DNA of 64,000 nt from Thermodesulfobacteriota bacterium (GTDB lineage Bacteria; Desulfobacterota; UBA8473): the NCBI GenBank assembly GCA_040757775.1, contig JBFLWQ010000007.1, positions 65,728 to 129,727 of the forward strand. Direction: 5' to 3'. This document shows, in pieces, positions 4,051-61,731 of this stretch. Below the pieces are notes generated by a model. It was not told where the DNA came from. It made no database searches and saw only the letters and a program-made list of their open reading frames with translations. The stretch's first letter is position 1, and every line of letters begins with the position of its first letter. Both the position numbers and the translations under genes were made by a program.

Positions 4051-4914
4051 ATGGCAACATTAAGAGATATAAGAAGAAGGATAGGCAGTGTTAAGAATAC
4101 ACAGACAATAACTCGGGCTATGCAGATGGTTGCTGCAGCCAAATTGAGACGGGCACAGGATAGCGCGTTAAAAGCCCGACCCTATGCAGAAAAGATGGGG
4201 GAGGTATTAAGCAGCTTGGCTCTGAGGACGCGAGGAGAAGCCCACCCACTCCTTGAAAGAAGGGAGTCAAAGAGGGTTAGAATTATAGTAATTACGGCAG
4301 AACGGGGGCTTTGCGGGGCATTTAACAATAATGTGCTCTCTAAGGCAGAAGGTATTATAAAAGAGAACAAAGAGAGGTCTTTAGAGACATCGCTGGTAGT
4401 GATTGGCATAAAGGGAAGGGATTACTTTAAAAGGAGAAAATATAATAGACATCAAGAGTACACAAATGTCCTCGGTGATTTAAAATACAGCCTTGCTTCT
4501 AATATTGGAAGGGACATTGTAGAATCCTACGGGGACAGAGAAGTCGACGAGATCAGTTTGGTCTATACAAAATTTCGCTCCACTATGAGACAAGAGGTAG
4601 TCGCAGAAACCCTTTTACCAATTAAGCCTATGGAAATAGAACCAGGGGAATCGGTTATAGATTATATCTATGAACCCGACGAAGAGAGGATACTGAAAGA
4701 GATACTTCCACGATACATTGAGGTTCAGATATTCAAGGCATTGTTGGAATCAGTGGCAAGTGAATACGCAGCAAGGATGATGGCTATGGAGGCGGCAACT
4801 AAAAATGCCGGCGAATTGATTAACAGCCTTACCTTATCCTACAATAAAGCAAGGCAGGCAACTATTACAAAAGAGATGATGGATATTGTAGGTGGATCGG
4901 AAGCATTAAAATAA
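4051..4914 (+). CDS. atpG: F0F1 ATP synthase subunit gamma
   Basis: Start MATLRDIRRRI...TQTITRAMQMVAAAKLRRAQ is the canonical gamma N-terminus. Confidence 0.95.
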   Translation: MATLRDIRRRIGSVKNTQTITRAMQMVAAAKLRRAQDSALKARPYAEKMGEVLSSLALRTRGEAHPLLERRESKRVRIIVITAERGLCGAFNNNVLSKAEGIIKENKERSLETSLVVIGIKGRDYFKRRKYNRHQEYTNVLGDLKYSLASNIGRDIVESYGDREVDEISLVYTKFRSTMRQEVVAETLLPIKPMEIEPGESVIDYIYEPDEERILKEILPRYIEVQIFKALLESVASEYAARMMAMEAATKNAGELINSLTLSYNKARQATITKEMMDIVGGSEALK

Positions 4915-17268: not shown

Positions 17269-18204
17269 ATGGAAAGTTTAATCAAAAATTTCTCACTGTA
17301 TCTGCAAATAGAGAAGAACGTATCAGAGAATACCTGCCGGAATTACATGAGCGATCTGAGGCAGTTTTTAAACTTCTTAAAAACCCAAAGGCTCTGTATG
17401 GGTAAGGGCAATAAGAAGATAGGTGTAACAAAGATAGACCATATTGTTATAAGAGCCTATTTAATGGAGTTGTATGGCAAAAATAAAAAGACTTCCATTG
17501 CAAGAAAACTCGCCTCCCTTCGGACATTCTTCAAATTCTTGATTAAGGAAGAAATACTCTCAATGAATCCAGCTGCTATGGTTACCACCCCTAAACAGGA
17601 AAAACATATCCCTGCTTTTTTGTCTGTTGATGAGATGTTCAGACTGGTTGAAAAACCTGTTAAATCATCCATCTTAGAATGTAGAGACAGGGCAATATTG
17701 GAGGTTTTGTACTCATGTGGTATTAGAGTAAGCGAGTTGGTGGGGCTGAATATTGATGATCTGGACTTTAGTTTGGGTATTATTAAGGTAAGAGGGAAAG
17801 GGAGAAAAGAGAGGATTGTTCCCATCGGGGGAAAGGCAATAGAAGCCCTGAAGAATTACCTTGAACATGTAAGTGAGCTGGAAGGAAAGCTCCCTGAAAG
17901 GTACTCTCAGGGAGAATTGGTAAGCCCTGTTTTCCTGAATTTCAGGGGTGAAAGGTTAAGCTCCAGAAGTGTTGCCAGGATAGTTAAAAAGTACGTCTTT
18001 CAATGCGGTATAATGAGAGATATCAGTCCGCACTCTATACGCCATAGCTTTGCCACTCATCTTTTAGATGCAGGAGCTGATTTGCGGGCAATTCAGGAGC
18101 TTTTAGGGCATAAGAGCCTGGGAACGACCCAAAAATATACCCATATAAGTATTGACAAATTAATGGAGGTCTATGACAAGGCACACCCCAGAAGTAAACT
18201 TTAG
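17269..18204 (+). CDS. Tyrosine site-specific recombinase XerC/XerD family
   Basis: R...HxxR...Y catalytic set: HSIRHSFATHLL, LGHKSLGTTQKYTHIS. Confidence 0.88.
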   Translation: MESLIKNFSLYLQIEKNVSENTCRNYMSDLRQFLNFLKTQRLCMGKGNKKIGVTKIDHIVIRAYLMELYGKNKKTSIARKLASLRTFFKFLIKEEILSMNPAAMVTTPKQEKHIPAFLSVDEMFRLVEKPVKSSILECRDRAILEVLYSCGIRVSELVGLNIDDLDFSLGIIKVRGKGRKERIVPIGGKAIEALKNYLEHVSELEGKLPERYSQGELVSPVFLNFRGERLSSRSVARIVKKYVFQCGIMRDISPHSIRHSFATHLLDAGADLRAIQELLGHKSLGTTQKYTHISIDKLMEVYDKAHPRSKL

Positions 18205-22028: not shown

Positions 22029-22201
22029 TGCCAATTCAGACACTGGACTCCAGACGCTAGAGACCAAACTGATCTTCCCTCCTTTTAGTGGTTACATCGA
22101 AGAGCTTAAAGATGTTTGCATGCCTATACAACACCATCACCCCCTATCAACGACACCTCAGGGTTTTATACGATTCGAAAAAAGACTCTTGAAGGATATG
22201 C

Positions 22202-25200
22202 ATGAAAAACTTTATTACAAACAACAGCGAAACTAATCTAAGAAAACGCTTGATAGAATTGATTAAGAAAAGCGATGAATTAAAATTTTTGGTAGGGTTT
22301 TTCTATTTTTCCGGAATAAGAGAGTTATATGAGGGTTTAAAAGAAAAACCAGATATAACCATCAAGGTTTTAGTAGGGTTAAATGTCGATAAAACAAATT
22401 TCGGGCTTCTCGAATTTGCTGACCAGGATAAGCAGTTATCAGATGAAGAAAGAAGTTATAAATTTTTACAATCAGTTAAAAAATCGATTAATTCAGAAGA
22501 TTTTGATACACAGGAATTTTATCAGCAGGTGAGATTTTTTATTAAACTCATAAGCGATGGCAAACTAATCATTCGGAAGACATATAACCCGAATCACGCG
22601 AAAATTTATTTGTTTAAATTAGAAGAAGGCCAAGTCAAAAGGAACTTATTTATTACCGGAAGCAGTAATTTGACAAAAGCCGGAATCACAACCCAGGAGG
22701 AGTTTAATGTTGAGATAAGCGACTTTGGCTTTGATGATGCAGAAGAATATTTTGATAGATTATGGGATGAGGCAGTAAAGATAACCGAAGATGATGTCAC
22801 TAAAAGGAAATTAATAGAGACAGTTGAAAAAGAGACCCTTGTTAAAGATATTACGCCCTTTGAGGCTTTTGTTTTAGTCCTTAAAACCTATCTTGACTCA
22901 TTTGAACAAAAAGAGGTTGGGCAGTCGCTGATTAAAATATTAGAAGAAAACGGCTACACTACTTATCAATATCAGATTGACGCAGTAAAACAGGCGCTTG
23001 CAATTATAGAGAAAAACAACGGGGTTATCATTGCTGATGTTGTTGGTTTGGGCAAGACAATCATTGCCTGTGCCGTAGCAAGAGAATTAAAAAAACGTGG
23101 TGTTGTCATTTGTCCGCCAGGCATTGTAGGTGATAAGAACAAGAACTCCGGATGGATGAAATACACCGAAGAATTTCGGCTATATGATTGGGAAGTCAGG
23201 TCGCTCGGTGATTTAGAGAATATAGCCGATTTTGTGTATAAGGCAAGAGACATTGAAGTAGTGATTATAGACGAGGCGCATCGTTTCAGAAATCAGGACA
23301 TAAAGAACTATGAATATTTAAAAAACATCTGCCGCAATAAAATTGTTATTTTGCTCACCGCTACACCATTTAATAACAGGCCCGGCGATATCCTGTCTTT
23401 ACTAAAGCTCTTTATTACCCCAAAGAAATCGTCAATAACTTTAGAAAATAATCTTGTTGATAGATTCAGGGTTTTCAAAGGAACCTTTGATAGACTTGCT
23501 TACATAAGAAAGTATCATAGCTCTCCAAACGAATACAAAAGGAGAAAAGCAGAAGATTACTATAAGGGTCTTTTTGAAGAAGCATCTATAAATCTGTATA
23601 AAGTAAAACAGAGAGCACATTATCTTGCCAGACAAATCAGAGATGTGATAGAGCCTGTTACTATCCGGCGCAACCGCCTTGACCTGCAAAACAATCCTTT
23701 TTACAAAGATGAAGTCAAAAACCTCTCTAAGGTTAAAGACCCAAATGAATGGTTTTTTGAATTAACCAAAAAGCAGTCAGAATTTTACGACCAGATTGTC
23801 AGCCATTATTTTGGCGACCCTGATGAAGGCGGGCAATTCAATGGCGCAATCTATCGGCCATTTGAATACGAAGTTGAGCGTGAAAAAGTTATTGGTGAGA
23901 AACTAACTGAGAGAGAAAATTTTCAGTTTATCCAACAGCGCAACCTGTATGACTTTATGCGGAGGTTGATAGTCAAACGTTTTGAGAGTTCTTTCGGGTC
24001 CTTTGAACAGAGTATTAAGAACTTTAAAGAAATTACTGAGATTGCCCTTCAGTTTATCAATAAAACCCAGAAGTATATCCTTGACCGCTCTCTTTTATAC
24101 AAAATTTATGATTTGGATCTAGACCAGATTGAAGAATACCTGAAAGATTATTCTGAAAAGATAAGAAATGGAGATTACCCTAAAAACCATAAGATTTATG
24201 ATTTGAATAAATTGAAATACAAAGACGATTTCCTTGCCCACATAAACGCAGATTTGACTCTTTTTGATAATATTTTGAAAGAACTATCAGCCTTAAATTT
24301 GGTTAAAAACGACCCAAAGGCTGAATGCCTGTTGAAAAATATCAAGGATGTATTAAAACAAAAGCCCAAAAAGGGTGAGCCTAAGAGAAAAATTATAATC
24401 TTTTCTGAATATCTTGATACAGTCAGATATCTTGAGCCAATTTTGAAAAAACAGTTCTGCGAAAGATTGCTGGTAATAGGCGGAGACCTGTCGTCATCAA
24501 AGATAATGAATATAAATAAGAATTTTGATGCCTCATATGGCAGACGGGAAGATGAATATGATATCCTCCTTGCCTCTGACAGAATCTCCGAGGGCTTTAA
24601 CTTAAACCGTGCCGGCATGGTGATTAATTATGACATCCCATGGAACCCTGTCAGGGTAATCCAGCGCGTGGGCCGCATAAACCGTATCAGCAAAAAGGTC
24701 TTTGACGAGCTTTATATAGTGAATTTCTTTCCTACGGAAAAAGGTGCAGAGCTTGTAAAATCACGGGAGATTGCCAGCAATAAGATGTTTTTAATTCATA
24801 ACACCCTCGGTGAAGACGCAAAGATATTTGATATTGACGAAGAGCCGACCCCTTCAGGATTGTATGAGAGAATACAACAAAACCCGGACAATTTGGAACA
24901 GGAAGGCTTTTATACCAAAATGCTGACAAAATATCTGGAAATCAAAAGAGGAAATCCAGCACTTATTAAAGATTTAAAGAATTATCCGTCTCGTATAAAG
25001 GTTGCCAAAAAATATGGTGAAAATGAGCTTTTAGTCTTTCTTAAAAAAGGAAAACTATATATTCATAGCGTTAAATATAATGCTGAGAAAGACAACTGCC
25101 TGTCTGCAGTGCCTACGGCACAGGCGGGGATATATCAGCCAACCTTTGAGGAAGTCTTTGATAAAATCGTTTGTGATAAAGATGAAGAAAAACTTCCTTT

Positions 25201-25585
25201 AAGCAATGTGTTCTGGGATTGCTATGAAAAGGTAAAGAAATTCAGGGAACATCGTACCGTGCCTGTGAGTGAGCAAAGTCTGGAACAGAAGGCGTTGAAT
25301 AATCTCAACACATTCATAAAAAATCCATGGGAAGAATTGTTGCCGTACATGGATTTTTTAAGAACCCTGCGCGAGGACATAATTGATTACGGCACACTCT
25401 CTGACTACACCCTGCGTCGCATCGCCAATCTTCTAAATTCAAATGATAACAATCGTAAAAAAGCAATTATCGAAATATCAGCCCTGAAAGATGAGATTGG
25501 AGAAGACTATCTCCAAAAAGAGAAGGACAAGCAGAAAGATTTATCTAAAGAAATAATTATTGCAATAGAAAATCAGAAAATATAA
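22202..25585 (+). CDS. Fusion protein: N-terminal PLD-family (HKD) nuclease domain + SNF2-family helicase (DEAH) + uncharacterised ~270-aa C-terminal domain
   Basis: Single HxK...GSxN motif (NHAKIYLF...ITGSSNLT) at residues ~130-160. SNF2 motif I ADVVGLGKT, motif II VVIIDEAHRF, TATPFNN, and helicase-C QRVGRINRI. AAGGA SD. AT-rich codon usage. Confidence 0.85.
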   Translation: MKNFITNNSETNLRKRLIELIKKSDELKFLVGFFYFSGIRELYEGLKEKPDITIKVLVGLNVDKTNFGLLEFADQDKQLSDEERSYKFLQSVKKSINSEDFDTQEFYQQVRFFIKLISDGKLIIRKTYNPNHAKIYLFKLEEGQVKRNLFITGSSNLTKAGITTQEEFNVEISDFGFDDAEEYFDRLWDEAVKITEDDVTKRKLIETVEKETLVKDITPFEAFVLVLKTYLDSFEQKEVGQSLIKILEENGYTTYQYQIDAVKQALAIIEKNNGVIIADVVGLGKTIIACAVARELKKRGVVICPPGIVGDKNKNSGWMKYTEEFRLYDWEVRSLGDLENIADFVYKARDIEVVIIDEAHRFRNQDIKNYEYLKNICRNKIVILLTATPFNNRPGDILSLLKLFITPKKSSITLENNLVDRFRVFKGTFDRLAYIRKYHSSPNEYKRRKAEDYYKGLFEEASINLYKVKQRAHYLARQIRDVIEPVTIRRNRLDLQNNPFYKDEVKNLSKVKDPNEWFFELTKKQSEFYDQIVSHYFGDPDEGGQFNGAIYRPFEYEVEREKVIGEKLTERENFQFIQQRNLYDFMRRLIVKRFESSFGSFEQSIKNFKEITEIALQFINKTQKYILDRSLLYKIYDLDLDQIEEYLKDYSEKIRNGDYPKNHKIYDLNKLKYKDDFLAHINADLTLFDNILKELSALNLVKNDPKAECLLKNIKDVLKQKPKKGEPKRKIIIFSEYLDTVRYLEPILKKQFCERLLVIGGDLSSSKIMNINKNFDASYGRREDEYDILLASDRISEGFNLNRAGMVINYDIPWNPVRVIQRVGRINRISKKVFDELYIVNFFPTEKGAELVKSREIASNKMFLIHNTLGEDAKIFDIDEEPTPSGLYERIQQNPDNLEQEGFYTKMLTKYLEIKRGNPALIKDLKNYPSRIKVAKKYGENELLVFLKKGKLYIHSVKYNAEKDNCLSAVPTAQAGIYQPTFEEVFDKIVCDKDEEKLPLSNVFWDCYEKVKKFREHRTVPVSEQSLEQKALNNLNTFIKNPWEELLPYMDFLRTLREDIIDYGTLSDYTLRRIANLLNSNDNNRKKAIIEISALKDEIGEDYLQKEKDKQKDLSKEIIIAIENQKI

Positions 25586-25731
25586 ATCTGCTAGAATGCT
25601 TTGGTATCTGTGGCAGAAAAAATTAAATTTCAAAATCTACAACAAACCCCCTATCATTGCAGACTATTGACATAATTGCCGAAATGGAGCAATATCCAAT
25701 TTAGTTAAACTAAAATGGAGGTTATTCCAGA

Positions 25732-25824
25732 ATGAAAATATTCGATAGAATCCTTAATATCAAACTCCCACCCAAACAATCTGCTTTCTTATGGGGCGCA
25801 AGAAAGACAGGGAAGAATGCCTGA
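25732..25824 (+). pseudogene. 30-codon remnant of the N-terminus of a COG1373-type AAA+ ATPase
   Basis: MKIFDRILNIKLPPKQSAFLWGARKTGKNA* retains an SD and a Walker-A-like FLWGARKTGK, but terminates just before the methyltransferase gene. Confidence 0.4.
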
Positions 25825-25855
25825 TTAAGGTTTATCCTTATCATTGAGGAGTTAC

Positions 25856-28800
25856 ATGCCAGAATTGTATAACAATGCAAGAAAAATATTATATGACATA
25901 ATTGAAGATTTTAGCCCCGATAAATTTATTCGCTTTTTCCGTGAGAAAAGCCGTGCCTTCACTCCAAGAGAAGAAGAGTTGTTCCAATATGACGATGATA
26001 ATTTCAGGAACGGTGTAAATCTTGGTGAAATTCAGTTTGCACAGGATGAGAAGATGCTTGTCTGTGCATTCGAGGCAAGCCAGCCACTTTCAGAACGAAG
26101 CGGCAAGAAGGCGCAGTATGAGAAGGGAAAGAAAATCCTTAAAGAAAGTCAGTCAGAAGCGGGCATTTTTATCTTCTATGACCCCCGGGGTAATTTCCGT
26201 TTTTCTCTGATTTATGCCAATTATCTTGGAACCCGCAGAGACTGGAGCGCCTTTCGACGGTTTACTTATTTTGTAAACCCGGAATTTACCAACAAAACCT
26301 TTCTACAAAGAATTGGAGGTGAAGATAACGATGATAGTTTTTCGTCTTTAGAAAAAATCAAAGACGTGTTTTCTGTAGAGAAAGTTACTAATAAGTTCTT
26401 TGACGATTTTAGAGTAATTTTTGAGCGGACCAAACATGAATTTGAGAAACAAAATAAAAATACAGTTTGCCTTTGGCTAAAGGACAGATATACAGATGAA
26501 GAATATAAAGAACAGATAAATAGATTTGTTTATACTTTTCTGGGTAGGATTGTTTTTGTGTATTTCTTACAGCGTAAAGGTTGGATAGAAAATCAAGTTA
26601 ATTATATTAGAAAAACGCTTGAGAATAATAGCAATACAAGTCTTTACTTAAGTTTTTTCCAGCCTTTATTTTTTGATGTCTTTGCCAAGAAAGAAAGCGA
26701 ACGGCCAGCAGAAATAAAAAAACAGTATAAAGATACCCCTTATCTTAATGGCGGTCTTTTTGAAAGAAGTGAACTAGAAAACAATTTACAAGAAAAAGGC
26801 ATTTTTATTTTTTTTGATGATAAGTTTATCCGAGATATTATTCTAAATTTCTTTGAAAATTATAACTTTACCATAGATGAAAATTCACCGGATGACCAAG
26901 AAGTTTCAATTGATCCAGAAATGTTGGGCAAGGTTTTTGAGAATACCCTAGCTGAAGAAGAACGAGGCAAAAAAGGGACTTTTTACACGCCAAGAGAAGT
27001 TGTTCACTTTATGGTAAAGGATTCTTTGTGGCAGTTTTTGCAAAATGAAACAAAAATTAACAAAGAAAAACTCCATCAGTTAATTTACGATAAAGAAGAA
27101 ATAGAACCTCTTACCCTAAAAAAAGAAGAAATTAGATTGCTTGATGACAAATTGGAGCATATTAAAGTTCTGGATCCCGCAGTCGGCTCCGCGGCTTTCC
27201 CGGTAGAGATGATGCAGGTTTTGGTTAATTTACGGAAACGGCTTAATGTAAATGTCGGCAAAAATATAAATGAAGTGTCGCTCAAAAAACATTTTATAAA
27301 AGAAAATCTTTATGGCGTGGATATTGACCCTGGCGCTATTGAAATTGCCAAGCTTCGTTTGTGGCTGGCATTGATAGTAGATTATGAAAAATCCGAAGCC
27401 GAACCGCTCCCTAATTTGGATTTTCAATTCCGCGTTGGCAACTCGTTACAAGAAAAAATTGATGATATTGATATTTTCCAAGAAGAAATGGTTGGCCAAT
27501 ATGGTTTATTTAAGAGCGAGTCAGAATATGAAAAAATGAAGGATAGAATGATTGCTATAAAAGATAAATTTTACCTTTCAGATAATGAAAATGAAAAAAA
27601 GAGATTAAAAAAACAGTTTGATAATTTGGAACATGAATTAATTCAAGCAGTTTTAAAAAATTATGGCAATCAGTTTAAATCTCAAATTGATAATGTTGAT
27701 ACTTTAGTAAAGGGGCAAAGGAAAGTAAAAGTTCAAAAGGAAATTGAGAAAACATTAAAAATAATCGCGAAATTGGAACAAAAAATTAAAGACGGCACTT
27801 ATAAATTATTCAAACCTGATTTTCATTTTTCCGAAGTATTTGATCGTAAAGATAACAATAATAATAAAATCGGCGGTTTTGATATTGTTATCGGTAATCC
27901 GCCCTATGGTGTTAAAGTAGAAAATGATATTAAAGAATGGCACGGTCTTGGAAGCAAAGACAGTTATGGTATTTTTATTTCAACGGCACTAAAAAGATTT
28001 CTCAAGCCGGGTGGGATTTTATCTTTTATCGTTTCTGATACTTGGTTAACGATTAAAACCCATAAACCATTGCGGGAGCAGGTATTGGGAAAGCAATTAC
28101 ATAAAATAATTCGTGTACACCAGGATTGTTTTGAGGCGACTGTCAATGCCTGCATAATGAGCGTGACGAACAGATCAGATAACGACAGCAAATTGATAAC
28201 AGCTGATTTTACAAATATTTCAACCCGAAAAGAAATAGAAGAATTACGGGAAAAACTTTATCATTTAGATGATTTTATCGGTCAATCCACGTCCAAGCTA
28301 GCCGTATATGAATATAATCAAGGATTGATTAAAACCAATTCTAATCTGCCGATTTTTGTCGGCAGCCCAAAATTGTTTCAGTTTATGTCTTACCCTCATG
28401 GAGTATCTTCTCTATATCCCAATTTTGCGGATGTAAAAAAGGGTATAGATACAGGGGAAAACGATTATTTTTTGTATCAGAATCCTGTGGCCAGAGGTAA
28501 CTACAGACCGGTTCCGCAGGAAAGAATCCTTAATGAATATGAGATATCTCTACTTACAATTGATGAACGACTTCACGGAATAGATCCCCAAAAACATAAA
28601 GGGAAATACATTATTCCATATGACAAAGGGGGAGAATCTGACACTGATGAGGGTTGGTTGCCGAATTATTTTGTTCCAACAGATTATTTTATAGACTGGT
28701 CGCGAGTATCTGTCAAAGAATTAAGAAGCAGAACACAGCGAGATTCAGGAAAAAATAAGGCATCTATCAGAAATGAAGACTCTTGGTTTAAAAAAGGAAT

Positions 28801-29227
28801 TACCTTTTCTTTGACTGGACAATATGCTCCTACTGTTAGATTAAACTCTACTGCGTTATTTGATAACAATGGGTCAACCATCTTTCCAAATGAAGAATTG
28901 AAAACACATTTATTATTGGGGTTGCTTGCATCAAAGTTAATGAAATATTTTTTTAAGAATTTTATTGATCATACCGTGCACGCACAAGTTAATGATTTTA
29001 AAGGTTTGCCAATAGTAATTAGTTTTAATCCTGCGGTTGATAAACTTGTTCGCCAAATTTTTGTAAAACAAAAACAAAATCCCCGCTATGATTATATGAG
29101 CAACGAGCAGAAAGAAATTGATAAATTGGTTTATGAAATGTACGGCTTGAACGCCGAAGATATTCGCGAAGTGGAAACTTGGTATGCCCGCCGATATCCA
29201 AAATTGGCGAGATTTTGCGAAGTGTAA
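25856..29227 (+). CDS. MmeI/PglX/Eco57I-like gamma-class N6-adenine DNA methyltransferase with TRD, no recognisable PD-ExK nuclease; frame terminates one nt before its conserved C-terminal helix
   Basis: PYLNGGLF (~aa 300), GTFYTPREVV, motif I LDPAVGSAAF, motif IV GNPPYG. GAGGAG SD before ATG 25856 (the ORF track starts at TTG 25844). The +1 frame from 29229-29308 encodes KQIDQMVYNLYELTEDEIKIVEGKG*. Confidence 0.85.
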   Translation: MPELYNNARKILYDIIEDFSPDKFIRFFREKSRAFTPREEELFQYDDDNFRNGVNLGEIQFAQDEKMLVCAFEASQPLSERSGKKAQYEKGKKILKESQSEAGIFIFYDPRGNFRFSLIYANYLGTRRDWSAFRRFTYFVNPEFTNKTFLQRIGGEDNDDSFSSLEKIKDVFSVEKVTNKFFDDFRVIFERTKHEFEKQNKNTVCLWLKDRYTDEEYKEQINRFVYTFLGRIVFVYFLQRKGWIENQVNYIRKTLENNSNTSLYLSFFQPLFFDVFAKKESERPAEIKKQYKDTPYLNGGLFERSELENNLQEKGIFIFFDDKFIRDIILNFFENYNFTIDENSPDDQEVSIDPEMLGKVFENTLAEEERGKKGTFYTPREVVHFMVKDSLWQFLQNETKINKEKLHQLIYDKEEIEPLTLKKEEIRLLDDKLEHIKVLDPAVGSAAFPVEMMQVLVNLRKRLNVNVGKNINEVSLKKHFIKENLYGVDIDPGAIEIAKLRLWLALIVDYEKSEAEPLPNLDFQFRVGNSLQEKIDDIDIFQEEMVGQYGLFKSESEYEKMKDRMIAIKDKFYLSDNENEKKRLKKQFDNLEHELIQAVLKNYGNQFKSQIDNVDTLVKGQRKVKVQKEIEKTLKIIAKLEQKIKDGTYKLFKPDFHFSEVFDRKDNNNNKIGGFDIVIGNPPYGVKVENDIKEWHGLGSKDSYGIFISTALKRFLKPGGILSFIVSDTWLTIKTHKPLREQVLGKQLHKIIRVHQDCFEATVNACIMSVTNRSDNDSKLITADFTNISTRKEIEELREKLYHLDDFIGQSTSKLAVYEYNQGLIKTNSNLPIFVGSPKLFQFMSYPHGVSSLYPNFADVKKGIDTGENDYFLYQNPVARGNYRPVPQERILNEYEISLLTIDERLHGIDPQKHKGKYIIPYDKGGESDTDEGWLPNYFVPTDYFIDWSRVSVKELRSRTQRDSGKNKASIRNEDSWFKKGITFSLTGQYAPTVRLNSTALFDNNGSTIFPNEELKTHLLLGLLASKLMKYFFKNFIDHTVHAQVNDFKGLPIVISFNPAVDKLVRQIFVKQKQNPRYDYMSNEQKEIDKLVYEMYGLNAEDIREVETWYARRYPKLARFCEV

Positions 29228-29231
29228 AAAA

Positions 29232-29299
29232 CAGATTGACCAGATGGTCTATAACCTCTATGAGCTGACAGAAGATGAGATAAAGATTGTGGAGGGGAA
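29232..29299 (+). repeat. 68-bp direct repeat copy 1 (3' end of MTase gene plus SD)
   Basis: 66/68 identical to 29867-29934. Ends in GTGGAGGGGAA immediately before the ATG of the next gene. Confidence 0.85.
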
Positions 29300-29308
29300 G
29301 GGGTAACA

Positions 29309-29590
29309 ATGCAAATTAAATATTCAAAGCACATTGAGGCAAGGATTGTCATGAGAAAGATTGAATACAGCCTGCCAAAAGAAATCTTCAAAAATGCAGA
29401 AGAGCGATTCATAGATGCAGAAACAGGGCATACAATAGCTGTTAAGAAGGCAGTATTATATGGAAAAGAAAGAGATATAATGGTAGCATATAGATATGAA
29501 GATATAGATGTTAAGCTATTAACTATACATCCCTTAAAAGAAGGACAAAAAGAAAACCGAGTTAAATCAGGAAGATGGAGGAAAATCTAA
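29309..29590 (+). CDS. DUF4258-family protein (putative toxin of a DUF4258/DUF2283 TA pair)
   Basis: 93 aa. MQIKYSKHIEARIVMRKIEY... matches DUF4258 size and pattern. Its stop overlaps the downstream start (TAATG). Confidence 0.6.
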   Translation: MQIKYSKHIEARIVMRKIEYSLPKEIFKNAEERFIDAETGHTIAVKKAVLYGKERDIMVAYRYEDIDVKLLTIHPLKEGQKENRVKSGRWRKI

Positions 29591-29799
29591 TGGACGATTT
29601 CAAGGTTTTTTATGATGAAGAAGAGGATATCCTTTACCTTGCAAAAGAAGGTGAGGAAGCCGAAGTTGTAGAAGTATCTCCGGGTGTGAATATGGAACTT
29701 GACAGTAACGGTAATCTTATGGGTATTGAACTCTTCAAAGCCTCTCATATGTTTAAAAATGTTCTTAAACCAATGGAGAAGAAACTTCAATTTGCATAA
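29589..29799 (+). CDS. DUF2283-family protein (putative antitoxin)
   Basis: About 70 aa, ...FYDEEEDILYL...VNMELDSNGNLMGIELFKAS, the typical DUF2283 pattern. Translationally coupled to the upstream ORF. Confidence 0.6.
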
Positions 29800-29866
29800 C
29801 TGCTGCCCCCAAATCCTCACTGCCCAAAAGAAAGACCCCAATACCTACACATCGGCACTGGAAAGG

Positions 29867-29934
29867 CAGATTGACTAGATGGTCTATAACCTCTATGGGC
29901 TGACAGAAGATGAGATAAAGATTGTGGAGGGGAA
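29867..29934 (+). repeat. 68-bp direct repeat copy 2 (decayed: in-frame TAG)
   Basis: CAGATTGACTAGATGGTCTATAACCTCTATGGGCTGACAGAAGATGAGATAAAGATTGTGGAGGGGAA. Confidence 0.85.
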
Positions 29935-29937
29935 AAG

Positions 29938-30300
29938 ATGAAATATAACCCTGATATTCTGACATTCACCACCACCGTTCTATACGATTAAAAGGATATG
30001 ATTATTCAAAGGCAGGGGCATATTTTGTAACGATATGCACACAAAACAGGGAATGTTTGTTAGGCGATGCAGTAGATGGTGAAATGAGATTGAACGAAAT
30101 GGGTAAAAGAATAATGGCATGTTGGCAGGGAATACCTGAACATTTTAGAGATGTTGAAATTGAGGAATTTATTGTAATGCCAAATCATGTTCATGGGATT
30201 ATTGTTATAAATCATATGTAGGGGCGCAATTTATTGCGCCCGATAGAACAGATACGTCATTACAGGGGAATCAGGACGTGATGAATCAGGGAGATGGATG
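29938..30300 (+). pseudogene. RAYT / IS200-like (Y1) tyrosine transposase pseudogene, frameshifted and 3'-truncated
   Basis: MKYNPD... then after a frame change HHHRSIRLKGYDYSKAGAYFVTICTQNRECL...IVMPNHVHGIIVI* (HuH-type IMPNHVH). A second frame change follows, then truncation at the thiL stop. Confidence 0.6.
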
Positions 30301-30304
30301 AAGT

Positions 30305-31315
30305 TTACAAAAAATGATCGAAGCCTTTTTTTTCAACTGTGTATCTCTTCCCACTATCATCTAAAACCGTAATCCCTTCCTCTGGTTCTACAATCTCTCC
30401 AATATGGGTAACCTTAGTCTTAAATCTGTTTTTCATCCTGTTAAATAAGTTAATATTACCCTTATCAACGGTGAATAAAAGCTCATAGTCCTCTCCGCCA
30501 CCGAGGGCTAAATCTATTGGTCTGTCGGTAAATTCACGGGAGACCTTTTGAAAGGCTTCCGAAGCAGGGAGTTTTTCCAACCAGATTTTTGCCCCCACTT
30601 TGCTTTGTTCACAGATATGCCCAAGGTCAGAGATAAGACCGTCGCTAATATCAATCATGGCCGAGGCAATGCGGTTCTCTGCAATCAACCTGCCTTCGGC
30701 TACCCTGGGAGTGGGGTTACAGTGCCTTTCCACTAAATCCTTAAATCTTTCCTCAATCCTGGATAGTTCTTTTCTATTCATGAGAATTTCAAACCCCAGA
30801 GCCGAATCTCCCAGCGTCCCCGTTACAAATACTTGATCTCCAACATGGGCATTATCACGATAGATTACATTGCCAGGAAAGGCTTCTCCCAGTAAAGTAA
30901 TGTTAATGTTGAGCTTTTCTGGAGAAAAAGAGGTGTCGCCACCAACGACATGAGTTTGGAAGGAATTAGCGGTCTCCTTAATGCCATCTGCAAATTCATC
31001 GATAAATTCTACAGATATCTTTGGGGGAATGGCAAGGGAGACCAAGAAGAACTTTGGGGTTCCTCCCATAGCAGCGATATCACTAATATTAACTGCCAGG
31101 GACTTCTTTCCTAAATTATATGCAGATATAAACCTCAGGTCAAAATGAACATCTTCAATAAGGGAATCACTGGTGGAGAGCAGTAATCTTCCTTTTTGAA
31201 TCTCAATAGCACAGGCATCATCGCCTATACCTTTAATGATATCTTGATGGGGGAAAGCGAGCTTAGTTTTTATTCTCTCTATCAGCCCGAATTCTCCCAC
31301 CTCTTTGATTTCCAA
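30305..31315 (-). CDS. thiL: Thiamine-monophosphate kinase
   Basis: [16 protein letters not shown]...GDDACAI AIR-synthase-related fold. Confidence 0.9.
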
Positions 31316-53577: not shown

Positions 53578-53654
<77 letters not shown>

Positions 53655-53693
53655 TTATTTATACAACTCTGATTTTGCCAATGCAAAATCAGA

Positions 53694-53769
53694 TGGTAGG
53701 CGGAACAGGGCTCGAACCTGTGACCCCCGGCTTGTAAGGCCGATGCTCTCCCAACTGAGCTATCCGCCC
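53694..53769 (-). tRNA. tRNA-Val (TAC)
   Basis: GGGCGGATAGCTCAGTTGGGAGAGC...CTTACAA anticodon loop, with CCA encoded. Confidence 0.9.
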
Positions 53770-53791
53770 AAAGAAATACTGGCTTCTCATT

Positions 53792-56242
53792 TTAATTTAC
53801 AGATTGGTTTGTAACCTCCTGGATTCTTTCTTGTTCATAGAACTCCTCAGTAATCCCTTCATCCTCTTTCTTTTTCATAAAATTGTCAGGGTCATCCAGT
53901 ATCAAAGCCCTTTTCAAGACCTCATCCATATGCTCTACCATCACAATATATACTGTCTTTAAAATCTTGACAGGGACTTCCTTAATATCCTTTTCGTTCT
54001 CCTTAGGAATAATGATTGTCTTTATACCACCCCTGTGAGCAGCCAAAACCTTCTCTTTAAATCCACCAATGGGAAGGACCCTGCCTCTAAGGGTTATTTC
54101 CCCTGTCATAGCTATATCCTTCCTCACAGGTTTCCTAATCAACGCAGAGGTTATAGAGGTTGCTATGGTAATGCCAGCCGAAGGCCCATCTTTTGGTATA
54201 GCCCCTTCTGGAACATGTATATGTATATCAATGTTTTGATAAAAATTCCTTTCTAAACCAAAGAGTTCTGCCCTTGACCGAACATAACTCAGAGCAGCAT
54301 GGGCAGATTCCTGCATAACATCACCCAGTTTTCCAGTAACAGTCAGTTTTCCCTTGCCCGGCATAACTGTTACCTCTATAGCAAGTAATTCTCCCCCCAG
54401 TTCGGTCCAGGCAAGGCCAGTTGCAAGCCCCACTGTGTCATCATCTTCCGCTTTACCATATCTGTATTTAGGAACCCCCAAATACTTCTGAAGACTACTT
54501 GACTGAATCCTGACTTTTGTATTCTTCCCTTTTTTGGCGACCTCTTTTGCTACTTTCCGACAAATAGATGCTATCTCGCGTTCAAGGTTCCTGACACCTG
54601 CTTCCCTGGTATATCTACGGATTACGCCGAGAATAGAATGAAGTGAGAAAACAACATTTTTATCAGCCAGACCATGGGCTTCTATCTGTTTTGGAATCAA
54701 AAACTTTTTAGCTATATTCAATTTTTCTAATTCTGTATAACCAGCAATACGAATAACTTCCATACGGTCCTGCAGAGGGAGAGGGATTGAAAACAAAGTA
54801 TTTGCTGTAGTAATGAACATCACCTTAGAAAGATCATAATCTACATCTATATAGTGGTCGTTGAATGCCTGATTCTGTTCAGGATCCAATACTTCCATCA
54901 ATGCAGCTGATGGGTCTCCTCTAAAATCAGTGCTCATCTTGTCCACTTCGTCTAACAGGAATACAGGGTTATTTGAGCCCGCCTTCTTTATAGACTGGAT
55001 GATCTTACCAGGCATTGAACCAATATAAGTTCTACGATGCCCTCTTATCTCAGCTTCATCACGGACTCCACCAAGTGAACACCTTACAAACTTCCTTCCG
55101 GTTGCTCTTGCAATAGATTTGGCCAAAGAGGTTTTACCCACCCCAGGAGGACCCACGAGACAAAGGATTGGTCCCTTCATCTTCTTAACCAAGCTTTGAA
55201 CAGCAAGATATTCTACTATTCGTTCCTTAACCTGTTTTAACCCATAGTGATCCTCATCTAAAATTTTCTCAGCTTCTGTTATGTCCAATTTATCTTCAGT
55301 TTCATCATACCAGGGAAGGGAGATCAACCAATCTATATAATTGCGTACCACTGTGGCTTCAGCAGACATAGGGGCCATCATTTTAAGCTTTTTAAACTCT
55401 TTTTCGACCTTTGTTGTTGCCTCCTTTGACATCCTTTTCTTTTTAATATTTTCTTCTAGTTCCTTAAGCTCAGTCTTAAACTCATCCTTTTCCCCCATCT
55501 CTTTTTGAATTGCCCGCATCTGTTCGCTGAGGTAGTACTCTTTTTGGCTCTTCTCCATCTGCTTTCTAACTCTGGTCTTAATCTTCTTTTCTATCTGGAG
55601 GATTTCAATTTCAGACTCAATTAGTTGGAACAGTTTCTCTAATCTCTCTGCGGTATTGAAAGTTTCTAAAATATCTTGTTTATCCTCCAACTTAATATTT
55701 ACATGAACAACAATAGTATCGGCTAATCGACTCGGGTCATCAATGGACAATACGGAAGATAGCATATCCTGGGAGATTTTTTTATTCAGTCTGACGAAAA
55801 TCTCAAAGGAATCTTTAAGATTCCGCATCAATGCCTCAATTACATTGGTTATTTTCTGAAAATCATTTACCTCCTCAACACTCACCTGCAAGAACTGTGT
55901 ATTGGGAATAATTCTCCTTATCACTGCCCTTTTTTTACCCTCAATAAGAACCTTAACTGTTCCATCCGGTAGTTTTAAAAGCTGAAGGATGGTGCTCAAA
56001 GTCCCAACCCTGTAAATATCATCATCTGAAGGGTTGTTAACCTTAGCATCCTTTTGGGTAGTCAGGAACAAGCTTTTTTCATTCTTTAGAGCATATTCCA
56101 ATGCATCTATCGACTTTTCCCTACCAACAAACAGTGGCACCACCGAATAAGGAAATACTACAATATCCCTAAGGGGCAGCAAAGGATATATACTTTCAAC
56201 ACTAGGTGCGTTATTAGAGCCTTTGGAAAGTTTGAACAACAT
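53792..56242 (-). CDS. lon: ATP-dependent protease Lon (paralogue 2, in the tig-clpP-clpX-lon cluster)
   Basis: GPPGVGKTS and PKDGPSAG. About 55% identity to lon-1 by eye. Confidence 0.95.
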
Positions 56243-56303
56243 TATTCTGCATCCTCTTGATCAGATGTGTCCTTTATGAAACAACAACGTACAGTCTATA
56301 AAA

Positions 56304-57557
56304 TTACGCAGATTCTGCTTTCTTTTCGTATACAAGTATAGGATTTTCTTTTTTTTGAACTACTTCTTCGGTTATAACACATTCCCGGATGTTCGATTGA
56401 GATGGCAGTTCGTACATAATGTCCAGCATAATATTTTCCATAATCGACCTCAGTCCTCTTGCCCCTGACCTCCGCTTCTGAGCCTCTTTTGCTATTGCTA
56501 CCAGAGCATCATTGGTAAAATTAAGACCAACTTTTTCAAATTCAAATAGCTTTCTATATTGCTTCACCAGAGCATTTCTTGGTTCCTTTAATATCCTTAC
56601 CAGGTATTCCTCAGACAGGTCACTTAAAGTAGCTATTACTGGTAATCTTCCAATAAATTCCGGGATTAAACCATATTTTAATAGATCCTCTGGCTGAACC
56701 TTTATCAGAATATCACTAACCTGTTTTCCCTCATTACTCCTGATCTCTGATCCAAAACCAATTGAACTTCCCCTTATTCGTCTCTGGATAATCTCCTCTA
56801 TACCATGAAATGCCCCCCCACAGATAAAAAGGATGTTGGTTGTATCTACTTGAAGAAATTCCTGTTGAGGGTGTTTTCTACCACCTTTAGGGGGAACACT
56901 GGCTACTGTACCTTCGATGATTTTCAGAAGGGCCTGTTGTACCCCTTCTCCTGATACATCCCTGGTAATGGAAGGACTGTCAGATTTCCGGGAGATTTTA
57001 TCAATCTCATCTATGTACACAATACCCTTTGATGCCTTTTCAACATCATAATCCGCAGCCTGCAATAAAGCAAGTATAATATTTTCTACATCCTCCCCAA
57101 CATATCCAGCCTCGGTAAGGCTTGTAGCATCTGCAATAGCAAAAGGAACATGGAGAATTTTAGCAAGAGTCTGCGCTAACAGGGTTTTGCCGCAACCTGT
57201 AGGCCCGATAAGTATAATGTTGCTCTTTTGAAGTTCAACGCCGTTCAGATCTATCTTGGAGTTTATCCTCTTGTAGTGGTTATGTACTGCAACAGAAAGA
57301 ATCTTTTTTGCCCTTTCCTGTCCTATAACGTATTCGTCCAGGAATTTCTTTATCTCAAAGGGTTTCGGAACCATGAAGCGCCCATCGTAACTCTCTTCTT
57401 TTTCAAACTCCTCGGCAATAATATCATTGCAAAGTTCAATACATTCATCACAGATGTAGACGGTAGGACCAGCTATCAGCTTTTTTACTTCCTTTCTTCC
57501 TTTGCCACAAAATGAGCAGCTTAAATTCTCAACTATATCATCATCTTTCCTATCCAC
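56304..57557 (-). CDS. clpX: ATP-dependent Clp protease ATP-binding subunit ClpX
   Basis: C4 zinc finger CSFCGK...CDEC, Walker A GPTGCGKT, and an IGF-like loop. Confidence 0.97.
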
Positions 57558-57644
57558 TTATTTCCTCCCTATTGTCTACCACCCACCCCCTCAGCCCCCC
57601 CTTTGGAAAAGGAGGGCTTGGGGGTTCAAATGGAATAACACCTA

Positions 57645-58235
57645 CTACACAGATGCCTTCTTTTTAATAACTTCATCAATAATTCCGTATTCCTTAGCTT
57701 CCTCGCTGCTCATAAAAAAATCTCGCTCTGTCTCTCTTTGTATTTTTTCTAAAGGCTGCCCAGTGTGATAAACCAATATCTCATTTAACCTCTCTCTTAT
57801 CTGGAGAATCTCCTTAGCATGGATCTCTATATCTGTAGCCTGTCCCTGGAATGCACCCAGAGGCTGGTGTAGCAATATTCGGGAATGGGGAAGGGCATAT
57901 CTCTTACCCGGTTCTCCTGCTGCCAAAAGCAACGCTCCCATACTTGCAGCCTGTCCCATACATAATGTTGAAACCTTGGGTTTTATGTACTGCATGGTGT
58001 CATAGATAGCAAGGCCAGAAGTGACTATACCGCCCGGCGAATTAAGATAAAGGTGAATATCCTTGTCAGGATCCTCAGACTCTAAAAATAACATTTGGGC
58101 AATAACCAGATTAGCCACTGTGTCATCTATAGGAGTGGCTATGAATATAATCCTCTCTTTTAGCAAACGGGAATAAATATCATAAGCCCGCTCTCCACGG
58201 CCAGTCTGTTCAATCACTATTGGAATCAGTGTCAT
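57645..58235 (-). CDS. clpP: ATP-dependent Clp protease proteolytic subunit ClpP
   Basis: GQAASMGA Ser nucleophile context, with His and Asp present. Confidence 0.97.
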
Positions 58236-59529
58236 TTTTCCTTCTTTCTATTTCTTTTATGTTAGCCTTTTCAATTATAAAATCAAGGGTTTTTTCTGTT
58301 TTAAGTCCACTCTTCAATCTCTCTCTAGCTTCGTCTCCTTTGTAATGATTTCTAACAACTTCAACATTATGCCCGGAATTTTCTGCAATTTCAAGTATCT
58401 TATCTTCAATATATCTTTCGTCTACCTCTATGGATTCCTTTTTTGCAATCTCTTCAAGGAGGAAACCGACTTTCACCTCTTTTTCAGCCTGGTCTTTATA
58501 GCTTTCTCTAATGCTATTAGCAGATATACCAACCTGCTCCATACTTACCCCCTGAAGAGACAGCCGCATCTGTGTTTCTTTTATCTTATCCTGAAGATGT
58601 TGATTGACTAATGAAGGCGGAACTTCAAAGGCATTTACCTCAACCAATTTATTTAAAAGTTGGTCTCTAAGGTTAGCTTCTATTCTGATTTTATCTAGCC
58701 TTTCTAAATTTTCTCTTATCTTTTGTTTAAGTTTCTCTAATGTCTCAAATTCTCCTAAATCCTTGGCAAAGTCATCATTTAACTCAGGTAGAATCTTCTC
58801 TTTTATCCCTTTTATTTTGACTTTAAAGGTTACCTCTTTACCCGCTAAATCCTTTTTACTGTATTCCTCTGGCAGGGTTATCTGAATATTTCTTTCATCC
58901 CCTTTTTTTAGTCCAGGCAACTGCTCTTCGAAATCCGGGGAAAAGGATCCAGACCCCACCTCTAGCAAATGATCGGCAACCTTTTCCCCATCAATTGCTT
59001 TCACATCCCAAAACCCCTCATAATCAATAACAACAAAATCCCCAACCTTAATGGGGCGAGATTCCTCTACCTCTCGTAACTGTGCGTTTGATCGCTGCAA
59101 CTCTGCAAGTTTTTTATCTATATCTTCTTCGGATATATTTATTTTACCCTTCTCTAACTCTATACCTATATAACCCCTGACATCTATCTCAGGTTTAACT
59201 TCAACTTTGGCAGAATAGGTAAATTCCTTACCTATCTCCAAAACATTATTGTCTATCAATGGCTGTGAAACAGGTGTTATATTTTTTTCTTCCAGTATTT
59301 TAAAGTAAGAATCATTTACAAGCTTTATGATAACCTCGCCTTCCACCTCTCTCTTATAGTATCTTTCAAGAATACTTCTGGGAACCCTGCCCTGACGGAA
59401 ACCTTTTACCTTAGCCTTCCTTCGTAAATCCTCATAGGCAGAATTCAACTCACTTGTAACCAATTCTTTTGGCAGGGTAACACTAAACTTTTTTTCGACA
59501 GGGCTTATCTCTTCTATTTCTATCTTCAT
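58210..59529 (-). CDS. tig: Trigger factor
   Basis: N-terminal ribosome-binding GFRxGxxP (KGFRQGRVP) and an FKBP-like middle domain. Confidence 0.93.
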
Positions 59530-59559
59530 CTAATCCTCGGGTAAAGAAATAAATAAACT

Positions 59560-59647
59560 TGGTGCGAGAGGGGGGATTTGAACCCCCACCCGACTGAGGC
59601 GGGCTGGATCCTAAGTCCAGTGCGTCTGCCAGTTCCGCCACTCTCGC
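59560..59647 (-). tRNA. tRNA-Leu (TAG), long variable arm
   Basis: GCGAGAGTGGCGGAACTGGCAGAC...CTTAGGA loop. Confidence 0.85.
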
Positions 59648-59721
59648 TAGGACATCGGGGACAGGTTTAAAATCTGCCTCTATTGTCTTTCCAATTACAG
59701 AGCGAAAAGTGCCTAAGTTTA

Positions 59722-59797
59722 TGGTGGGCCGTGTAGGGATCGAACCTACGACCTACTGATTAAGAGTCAGTTGCTCTACCAATTGAGCTAACGGCCC
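59722..59797 (-). tRNA. tRNA-Lys (CTT)
   Basis: GGGCCGTTAGCTCAATTGGTAGAGC...CTCTTAA loop. Confidence 0.85.
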
Positions 59798-59803
59798 TTT
59801 GTT

Positions 59804-59880
59804 TGGTACGCCCGGTCCGACTCGAACGGACGACCTGCGGATTCGAAGTCCGACGCTCTATCCAACTGAGCTACGGGCGC
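59804..59880 (-). tRNA. tRNA-Arg (TCG)
   Basis: GCGCCCGTAGCTCAGTTGGATAGAGC...CTTCGAA loop. Confidence 0.8.
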
Positions 59881-59881
59881 A

Positions 59882-59959
59882 TGGGGTGAGTGAAGGGATT
59901 CGAACCCTCGACCACTGGAGCCACAATCCAGTGCTCTAACCAACTGAGCTACACTCACC
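59882..59959 (-). tRNA. tRNA-His (GTG) with G-1
   Basis: GGTGAGTGTAGCTCAGTTGGTTAGAGC...TTGTGGC loop. Confidence 0.85.
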
Positions 59960-59987
59960 ATAGTAATTAAATTATAAGACTAGTTTC

Positions 59988-60064
<77 letters not shown>

Positions 60065-60082
60065 CCGTATTTACAACCTTAA

Positions 60083-60161
<79 letters not shown>

Positions 60162-60199
60162 TCAAAAAGATTGTTAAATAGCACATAACCAAAAATATT

Positions 60200-61531: not shown

Positions 61532-61731
61532 TGTCTCTCCTGACTTTTTAGGATGTGATACATTCTTGATACCTTTGGAGCCAACTGTTTCAAGGTCTCT
61601 TCCCTCATACTCTGGATCAATTATAACCGCATATAAGTTTCAGGGAGGCACTAAAAAGAAAAAGACGTGAATGAACAAGTCCCGTACTATAAAAGTACGG
61701 GACAGGCAACTATTTAATTTCCTCAAATCAT

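Follow-up and report, generated by a model that had tools for sequence, protein, structure and literature searches.

Remnants of a methyltransferase gene tail bracket a putative toxin-antitoxin pair and recur with it in different genomic contexts

We analyzed a 64,000-nucleotide stretch of DNA from a Thermodesulfobacteriota bacterium (contig JBFLWQ010000007.1, positions 65,728 to 129,727; hereafter, the window), in which a defense islet of ~8 kb (22029-30304) contains only a helicase gene, a methyltransferase gene, a toxin-antitoxin (TA) pair, and a RAYT transposase pseudogene. At the edge of this islet, two direct repeats of 73 nt enclose the 562-nt TA unit, which is free of mobility genes. 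Both copies of the repeat are pseudogenic stubs of the tail of an Eco57I/type IIG methyltransferase gene (encoding ..QIDQMVYNLYGLTEDEIKIVEG followed by a stop codon) other than the one that lies beside them, and the stub-TA-stub unit as a whole is old, recurring in at least six different genomic contexts.

An initial annotation of this DNA, made from the sequence alone, had described a 68-bp direct repeat at 29232-29299 and 29867-29934 with 66/68 identity. We found the same 68-nt core and could extend it to 73 nt (29227-29299 versus 29862-29934, 69/73 identical). The search for further copies was run on the 64-kb window, where a scan allowing up to 3 mismatches returned two copies and none further; no copy was seen in 100 dinucleotide-preserving shuffles. 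Four mismatches separate copy 1 from copy 2, namely, AA/GG at 29230-29231, C/T at 29241, and A/G at 29263, and the C-to-T change turns a CAG codon into the in-frame TAG (29876-29878) that had already been noticed in copy 2. Also as described, the copies share their 3' end, GTGGAGGGGAA, and an ATG follows nearby, 9 nt past copy 1 (29309) and 4 nt past copy 2 (29939). Read in one frame, both copies encode (K/R)QID(Q/stop)MVYNLY(E/G)LTEDEIKIVEGK. and then a stop codon. The differences between the two fall at codon positions 1 and 2 only (one nonsense, one missense), as is expected for the neutral decay of near-identical copies.

It had been assumed that copy 1 is the 3' end of the adjacent methyltransferase gene. 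This gene, however, has its native stop codon at 29225-29227, which is where copy 1 begins, and copy 1 reads in the +1 frame with respect to the methyltransferase. The methyltransferase ends in ..WYARRYPKLARFCEV, and its homologues (at most 61% identical) finish alike, with ..KLARFCEIN, ..RFCDIK, or ..RFAEVE immediately before the stop codon and with a shared ..WYARRYPKLARFC(E/D).. motif. Because its C terminus matches the native end of these homologues, the window methyltransferase is complete without copy 1. Furthermore, it has a tail motif of its own, IDKLVYEMYGLNAEDIREVE (29117-29173), which differs from the stub tail; at the nucleotide level, the tail of this gene is 52-54% identical to the stubs and belongs to a different tail subfamily. 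A programmed +1 frameshift leading from the methyltransferase into copy 1 was considered and ruled out, given the native end and the lack of a slippery site before the stop codon.

To what, then, do the stubs belong? We used a profile (A2) built from 20 methyltransferase tails, which at a cutoff of E<=0.001 matched 17,016 representative proteins in a library of 1.84 billion; in long methyltransferases, the motif sits at the extreme C terminus. A six-frame scan of the window with this profile matched stub 1, stub 2, and the methyltransferase's own tail only. The short hits returned by a word-indexed protein search were not taken as absence of full-length proteins, and an exhaustive profile search found many. 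A tblastn search of plasmids with the tail yielded three ordinary full-length methyltransferases and no stub arrays. The two stubs are unequal in length (Table 1): tail-like coding in stub 2 reaches ~65 nt upstream of copy 2, to the antitoxin stop codon (29799), a stretch that is absent from copy 1, and stub 2 terminates at the stop codon at 29939-29941. In stub 1, a Shine-Dalgarno-like sequence for the toxin gene (GGAGG/AAGGGG) lies within the last codons, and a 40-aa stub open reading frame (ORF; 29184-29306) ends 2 nt before the toxin start.

Table 1. Genes and gene remnants of the defense islet and its right edge (positions in the window)
Feature	Position	Strand	Basis
HKD(PLD)+SNF2 helicase, first islet gene	22202..25585	+	Pfam PLDc_2, SNF2-rel_dom, Helicase_C; PADLOC DrmD-like, C3a139 'HKD+Snf2'
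Eco57I/type IIG-like N6-adenine methyltransferase, intact, 1127 aa	25844..29227	+	Pfam Eco57I, N6_Mtase, MmeI_Mtase
Stub 1, ~25 codons of foreign methyltransferase tail (KKQIDQMVYNLYELTEDEIKIVEGKG, stop), holds copy 1	29227..29306	+	Tail hidden Markov model (HMM), E=2.9e-15
Putative toxin, 93 aa, RelE/ParE-like predicted fold	29309..29590	+	AlphaFold model and PDB fold matches
DUF2283 antitoxin, 69 aa	29590..29799	+	Pfam DUF2283, E=6.8e-13
Stub 2, longer methyltransferase-tail remnant (..QILTAQKKDPNTYTSALERQID, stop, MVYNLYGLTEDEIKIVEGKR, stop), includes copy 2 and its TAG	29800..29941	+	Tail HMM match
RAYT/IS200-like Y1 transposase pseudogene, frameshifted and truncated	29939..30295	+	Three-frame translation; weak Pfam Y1_Tnp match, E=0.03
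Putative thiL, right islet edge	30305..31315	-	Named from sequence; synteny with L003

Between the stubs, the toxin and antitoxin genes are co-oriented, and the toxin stop and antitoxin start overlap in the sequence TAATG. The 93-aa protein has at least 301 homologous clusters, mostly from Nitrospirae metagenome-assembled genomes, and in homologous loci the same 69-aa gene overlaps the toxin stop. The earlier identification of the toxin as a DUF4258 protein did not hold up: a Pfam scan of the window protein gave no match at E<=1, DUF4258 included, and of 32 toxin homologues a single one touched DUF4258, at E=0.097. The AlphaFold model (predicted local distance difference test score, 95.7) points to a RelE/ParE-like fold instead, with the HigB2, YoeB, RelE, and ParE toxins as the best folds in the PDB (template modeling score about 0.5, with weak E values). 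On the strength of this model, a TA pair with a putative toxin is a reasonable reading of the two genes. Exact-sequence look-ups of the window toxin, antitoxin, and methyltransferase found no identical protein on record.

In every context examined, the ribosome-binding region of the toxin gene is contained in the final part of the upstream stub, also where the remainder is eroded, and the last 25-40 nt of that stub are kept ahead of the toxin ATG, the most eroded case (L025, described below) included. Thus, the proposal that the repeats provide the ribosome-binding site of each downstream gene is right for the toxin. For copy 2 it is not, and the ATG that follows there is incidental: the RAYT pseudogene is missing from the syntenic locus L003, and in other contexts the neighbor of the downstream stub is another gene or an oppositely oriented one.

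The initial annotation had allowed that the repeat might be found nowhere else; in fact, stub-TA-stub units and stub arrays are present at related loci. We collected 28 such loci (identified here by L numbers) with a degenerate DNA pattern of the repeat, which matched four genome contigs and two metagenome contigs, and with protein searches, followed by context look-ups. The contigs L015 to L028 were picked by toxin similarity alone (clusters P0318, P0319, and P0325, with 97%, 94%, and 82% amino acid identity, respectively), and in these, too, stubs lie on both sides of the TA pair while the surroundings differ. In L028 (P0318), the TA pair has the 3' end of stub 1 on its upstream side and stub 2 on its downstream side, and an MNT-type nucleotidyltransferase gene comes next. 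In L025-27 (P0319), the stubs are eroded to ~40 nt on the left and ~75 nt on the right, and the unit sits between deoC and polA. In L015-24 (P0325), four 123-nt stub copies within 2.1 kb bracket a PIN-type TA pair and the DUF2283 TA pair, and the module has a PIN TA pair on one side and VapBC on the other.

The remaining loci of this kind extend the pattern. L003 (= L006) is syntenic with the window; its contig begins inside the antitoxin gene, has the same junction between the antitoxin stop and the stub, and continues through copy 2, here without the TAG and with a frameshift upstream, directly into thiL-lon, with no RAYT gene. The absence of the RAYT pseudogene from this locus, where the stub abuts thiL, marks it as a lineage-specific later insertion that has since decayed. 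L007/L008 carries, in order, an intact tail-bearing methyltransferase, a 936-aa AAA-ATPase, a 33-codon stub, and an orthologue of the window toxin, with the stub-toxin junction in L008 the same as the window's; L009, from the same sample, begins in the antitoxin and runs through a stub into RhuM. Overall, the stub-toxin junction has orthologues in L008, L015, and L028 (eroded in L025), and the antitoxin-stop/stub 2 junction (GCATAAC..) is common to L003, L009, L015, and L028. Even four 'long' toxin calls (120-122 aa) conform, as their N-terminal extensions (..RDCDCGGEGVT-MQIKY..) are the stub 3' end in another frame. Since both stubs have positional orthologues elsewhere, the structure predates the window genome. 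Neither of two earlier ideas survives this comparison: that the TA pair inserted between repeats already present in the window genome, as it is the whole stub-TA-stub unit that recurs, and that copy 2 is simply a decayed duplicate of copy 1, as both stubs are old and the stubs of L007/L008 and L009 represent two subfamilies.

Tail stubs also separate cargo of other kinds. Arrays of two to four stubs occur in L002, L004/L005, L007/L008, L010, L011, L013, and L015, and a fragment of methyltransferase tail lies at the start or the end of every array unit. In L010, DUF433, DUF1016/YhcG, and other genes are interspersed with four stubs; L011 has three stubs, which set a DUF2283 pair and DUF2281/PemK pairs apart amid housekeeping genes; and a DUF433/DUF5615 pair lies between two stubs in L013, as do three uncharacterized ORFs in L002. 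In L004/L005, a DarT-macro gene lies between two 111-nt copies that are 81-82% identical, and L001 carries the same DarT directly behind an intact methyltransferase gene. An intact methyltransferase gene is thus found upstream in L001 and in L007/L008 (tail, ATPase, stub, toxin), and none is nearby in L011 or L025. As an aside, the bracketed gene of L004/L005 (reverse strand, ~950-2190) is a single open frame of 388 codons in which DarT (Pfam E=3.5e-42) is joined to a macro domain, apparently as a DarT-DarG fusion or by read-through.

The anatomy of the stubs is informative about their origin. Their 5' limits vary by locus, from about 25 to about 85 codons, whereas downstream they run to the natural stop codon, with the following gene beginning 0-30 nt farther on. 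In L008/L009, L010, and L013, the stubs to the left and to the right are of different tail subfamilies ('..DPNADTSALERQID' versus '..KVKEYE.QID'). Within arrays, the differences between stubs at codon positions 1, 2, and 3 number [2,0,8], [4,1,9], [2,2,8], [4,2,8], and [1,1,5]; this dominance of third positions indicates that the sequences diverged while they were coding, in separate functional methyltransferase genes. The stubs themselves carry stop codons and frameshifts (for example, the TAG in the window and the frameshift in L003).

Two observations bear on whether the stubs recombine. First, L015 holds a 126-nt segment situated exactly between two AGAGATTGC(A/G)ATTGTGGAGGGG stub ends; L017, L021, L022, and L024, closely related contigs from different samples, lack the segment and carry a single, hybrid copy of this stub end. 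Farther upstream, the content of these strains is unrelated (ResIII helicase; TnsA-like protein and OLD ATPase; ORF6N-GcpE-Gp49/HTH; TaqI_C methyltransferase). Second, copy 2 of the window is 94.5% identical to copy 1 over 73 nt (97% over 68 nt), compared with 87.7% to its positional orthologue in L028, a locus whose TA genes are 94.7% and whose copy 1 3' end is 97.8% identical to the window's. That copy 2 is nearer to copy 1 than to its own orthologue is the pattern expected of gene conversion between the copies. Together, the 126-nt indel and the conversion signal indicate that stubs do recombine.

We infer from these results that methyltransferase-plus-cargo modules were displaced one after another or eroded, that addiction kept the TA pair in place, and that the stubs were left as homology for RecA, and to this account as a whole we would assign a probability of roughly 0.6. 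The starting point would be small cargo (TA pairs, DarT-macro genes, ATPases) lying within a few bases of a conserved methyltransferase tail (about the last 23-60 codons). Incoming or resident modules of this makeup would recombine in the conserved tail and be joined illegitimately on the other side, that is, by homology-facilitated illegitimate recombination (HFIR); alternatively, methyltransferase bodies would be deleted. The TA pair would survive such events because its loss would be lethal, and the last codons of the upstream stub would survive because they hold the Shine-Dalgarno region of the toxin gene. The outcome would be a stub-TA-stub module and, after repeated events, an array of alternating stubs and cargo. 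As they accumulate, the stubs would offer short, portable homology for RecA-type gene conversion, deletion or duplication, and exchange of flanking content, and in this way cassettes could be gained; gene-tail stubs thus probably act as portable homology by which small defense and addiction genes are shuffled. A more ambitious version, in which a gene-tail fossil of ~70-125 nt serves as the dispersed repeat of a hitherto undescribed, recombinase-free cassette system, so that TA and defense genes are captured, arrayed, deleted, and moved by homologous recombination in a RecA-driven analogue of integrons that is widespread in Nitrospirota and other uncultured lineages, is a possibility that we put forward tentatively and regard as doubtful.

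Several points weigh against the displacement account. Neither an empty site nor an excised form of the stub-TA-stub module was found, and its movement is deduced from the differing contexts only, which could be independently eroded islands rather than the products of transfer. The related contigs are short, and in the empty-site search the loci either hold both stubs and the TA pair (L015, L025, L028) or run off the contig (L003, L008, L009); absence of an empty site is not proven. Outside the window, no contig covers the whole module plus an intact methyltransferase gene of the matching tail type, and a search of the stubs for a sigma-70-like promoter was negative. L002-L014 were found via the stub search, which biases the frequency of arrays upward, although their existence is not in doubt, and many of the short 'stubs' in metagenomes may be genes cut off where a contig ends. 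Finally, the gene-conversion signal comes from a handful of sites, and the recombination polymorphism between stubs is a single case, at a related locus outside the window.

Among other explanations, we took most seriously the idea that the stubs are passive fossils. The different contexts would then be deletion leftovers of larger methyltransferase islets, in which deletions touching the TA pair were lethal, and the stubs would play no part in recombination or cassette gain. The ragged and progressively eroded stub limits (as in L025-27), the stop codons and frameshifts within stubs, and the lack of any mobility gene are all in keeping with this idea, which we nevertheless judge to be unlikely. 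The occurrence of the same two stubs with the TA pair in at least six unrelated surroundings would require repeated independent entry and erosion, the stub-bounded indel and the conversion signal speak for recombination between stubs, and the four stub copies of L015 share one left boundary and were therefore copied as stubs.

A one-off local event, in which the TA pair inserted with a long target duplication of ~70 bp and left a recent duplicate pair, is distinctly improbable. It would suit the window taken by itself, where there are only two copies, 97% identical and with differences resembling neutral decay, and direct repeats of >30 bp around a unit without mobility genes fit a published class (PMC2853133). 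Such an event would not produce the orthologues of stub 1 upstream of the toxin in L008, L015, and L028 or those of stub 2 downstream of the antitoxin in L003, L009, L015, and L028; nor does it agree with the different subfamilies of the L008 and L009 stubs, the additional ~65 nt of tail in copy 2, or the failure to find a single-copy empty site.

The initial annotation had also likened the locus to an integron- or shufflon-like cassette array, while pointing out that it has no attC features. We agree with the latter: folded as single-stranded DNA, the two copies gave z scores of -0.12 to +0.50 relative to shuffles, whichever strand was taken, and neither repeat contains an integron core site (R'', RYYYAAC; R', GTTRRRY); the two matches to GTTRRRY in 29200-29960 are both inside the toxin gene. 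It is very unlikely that the arrays are built by a dedicated, site-specific cassette system (like an integron or a shufflon, or of a new type) with its recombinase encoded elsewhere. In its favor, the arrays are co-oriented and compact with a repeat after each cargo and with cargo 0-30 nt past the repeat end, and the repeat core opens with a short imperfect palindrome, ATTGACCAGATGGTCTAT. The palindrome, however, encodes the widely conserved QIDQMVY, the repeat limits vary by locus, and the synonymous divergence fits a coding history rather than a DNA site. No integrase or recombinase gene was found in the islet or in the inspected gene tables and ORFs of related loci (roughly 20). The repeats are 11 kb distant from the sole tyrosine recombinase gene of the window (17269-18204), which has murJ, an Ogt-like gene, and putative hslVU around it and by this context looks like a chromosomal Xer-type gene. 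The absence of an attC fold, core sites, an Rfam family in the repeat region, a promoter, and a recombinase argues against a site-specific system and for methyltransferase remnants. Of the proposed cassette-array-like, recombining structure, therefore, the bracketed TA pair, the arrays elsewhere, and the polymorphism among strains stand; site specificity does not, and homologous recombination is favored.

Two further repeat systems were examined. No reverse transcriptase was found among the ORFs at 22-35 kb, as a diversity-generating retroelement would have, and the mismatches (AA/GG, C/T, A/G, with no single adenine-containing template copy) are not of the retroelement type. A repetitive extragenic palindrome (REP)/RAYT system is not indicated either, as the repeat is not palindromic by fold and the RAYT gene is pseudogenic and missing from L003.

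That the stubs are kept for the TA operon (as a leader, ribosome-binding site, terminator, or insulator or for translational coupling from the 40-aa stub ORF) and not for recombination would suit the retained end of the upstream stub and the close spacing of that ORF to the toxin gene, yet it accounts for the 3' end of stub 1 only, the 5' part being dispensable (L025) and the downstream stub having no consistent neighbor and the stubs no promoter-like site, so that as a full explanation it is very improbable, while as a contributing factor it is compatible with displacement rather than an alternative to it.

Arrays of displaced modules are known from other systems. At Rhs, CdiA-CT/CdiI, and Vibrio cholerae type VI secretion system (T6SS) loci, old modules displaced to downstream positions keep a fragment of the conserved segment together with the immunity gene, HFIR has been proposed, and orphan fragments can recombine (PMC5361080, which cites Jackson 2009 and Koskiniemi 2014 on orphan-module arrays). 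The stub arrays resemble these contact-dependent inhibition (CDI), Rhs, and T6SS loci in that small modules of variable content come after a coding segment that is conserved, and in that the protective partner (here, the antitoxin) is kept. They differ in that the anchor is the extreme 3' tail of a methyltransferase gene rather than the core of a toxin gene, in that the cargo consists of separate genes past the stop codon of the tail rather than a replaceable C-terminal domain, and in that there is often no intact methyltransferase gene nearby (L011, L025). The logic is the same as in the known orphan arrays; a literature search, incomplete in coverage, found no account of TA cassettes whose recurrent boundaries are stubs of methyltransferase tails.

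For the window alone, the closest purely descriptive match is the long target duplication of restriction-modification units, in which direct repeats of 30 to >400 bp flank an addiction-type unit without mobility genes and which is defined by an empty site with one repeat copy in a related genome (PMC2853133; Nobusato 2000; Furuta, Abe and Kobayashi 2010). A link to restriction-modification is common to both, whereas here both repeats travel with the TA pair, the stub subfamilies can differ, and no empty site was found. Integron arrays, including clusters of attC sites lacking an integron integrase (CALINs) and the Vibrio superintegrons, are likewise compact and co-oriented, often carry TA cargo, and have a repeated element of ~60-140 bp. 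The stub arrays, in contrast, have no IntI, attC structure, or core sites, and what repeats in them is the decayed tail of a protein-coding gene, variable in its limits. The minimal mobile elements of Neisseria are cassettes without mobility functions that are exchanged at a fixed site by homologous recombination in intact conserved flanking genes; here, short pseudogenic stubs form the flanks, and they go with the cassette to different sites.

TA and small defense genes are highly mobile, mostly without visible means of moving. If a short remnant of a conserved gene tail suffices to seed arrays and exchange of these genes, this would explain how TA-rich genomes such as those of Nitrospirota build their repertoires without integrases, and it would extend the logic of orphan arrays formed by displacement from polymorphic toxin loci to restriction-modification and TA genes. 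A free-standing mini-ORF encoding ..IDxMVYxLYGLTxEEIxIVEG and then a stop codon would mark a former methyltransferase site and a likely recombination hot spot. For the window alone, the conclusion is more modest: the repeat had been seen correctly, and its origin and meaning are other than had been proposed.

Some features of the related loci deserve mention in their own right. An apparent site-specific breakpoint at CAGATTGACC (L002 stub 2 and L010_b) was rejected as such because it is explained by a REP-like hairpin at TTGACC and an ATTGACC microhomology deletion relative to L009. The hairpin, CCCC(A/G)TTAGAT..ATCTAACGGGG with TTGACC/TTGAGG flanks, occurs at L009:300-350, at about 2700-2760 of L002 (reverse), and at L010:11740-11780, where it interrupts a stub precisely at the TTGACC of CAGATTGACC, apparently with a duplication of 6 nt; the window has no copy of it. 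L014:190-400 has a stub of a third subfamily (..RTPQEQ..IDRLVYELYGLTEDEIKIVES, stop) behind an unrelated Cys-rich small ORF and shares ~35 nt (ATGGAGAA..TGCATAA.TGCTG.CC, encoding 'LHNCCP') with the antitoxin-stub junction of the window and with L002; this junction may represent part of a nested stub or mark the boundary of a cassette. A conserved noncoding element of ~145 nt (GTTTAATGGGACGGTTCTAATTATTTGAGAATGGCT..), for which Rfam gave no match, is present at L015:2785-2930 and 4604-4658 (98% identical to each other over 55 nt) and also in L017, L021, L022, and L024; it abuts truncated stubs at the point where strain-variable content starts.

In the islet itself, the helicase and methyltransferase genes (22202-29227) form a compact two-gene defense module between a nitroreductase gene and thiL, and the islet does not contain a complete DISARM or BREX set. 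PADLOC labels the methyltransferase REase_MTase_IIG/PglX-like, that is, type IIG-like. Its residues 106-185 (26159-26398) are highly similar to the methyltransferase of L007 (L007:26-260; AGIFIFYDP.GNFRFSL...SSLEKIKD.FSVEKVT), and otherwise the two proteins are only 32% identical; this likeness of ~80 N-terminal residues suggests domain-level mosaicism in the family. The RAYT pseudogene has a frameshift after MKYNPD and is truncated after ..HVHGIIVI / GAQFIAP. Beyond putative thiL lies putative lon, on the strand opposite to the stubs (the names come from sequence and synteny). Upstream of the islet, Pfam matches include MurJ, an Ogt DNA-binding domain, the phage-integrase-family tyrosine recombinase, Proteasome, AAA_2, amino acid kinase, and nitroreductase, and we read the ORFs concerned as including xerC-like, hslVU, and argB genes. 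Finally, Rfam places a tmRNA gene at 61732-62083 (minus strand) and eight tRNA genes in clusters at 53.6 kb and 59.6-60.2 kb (53581-62083 of the window in all), and these are unrelated to the repeats.

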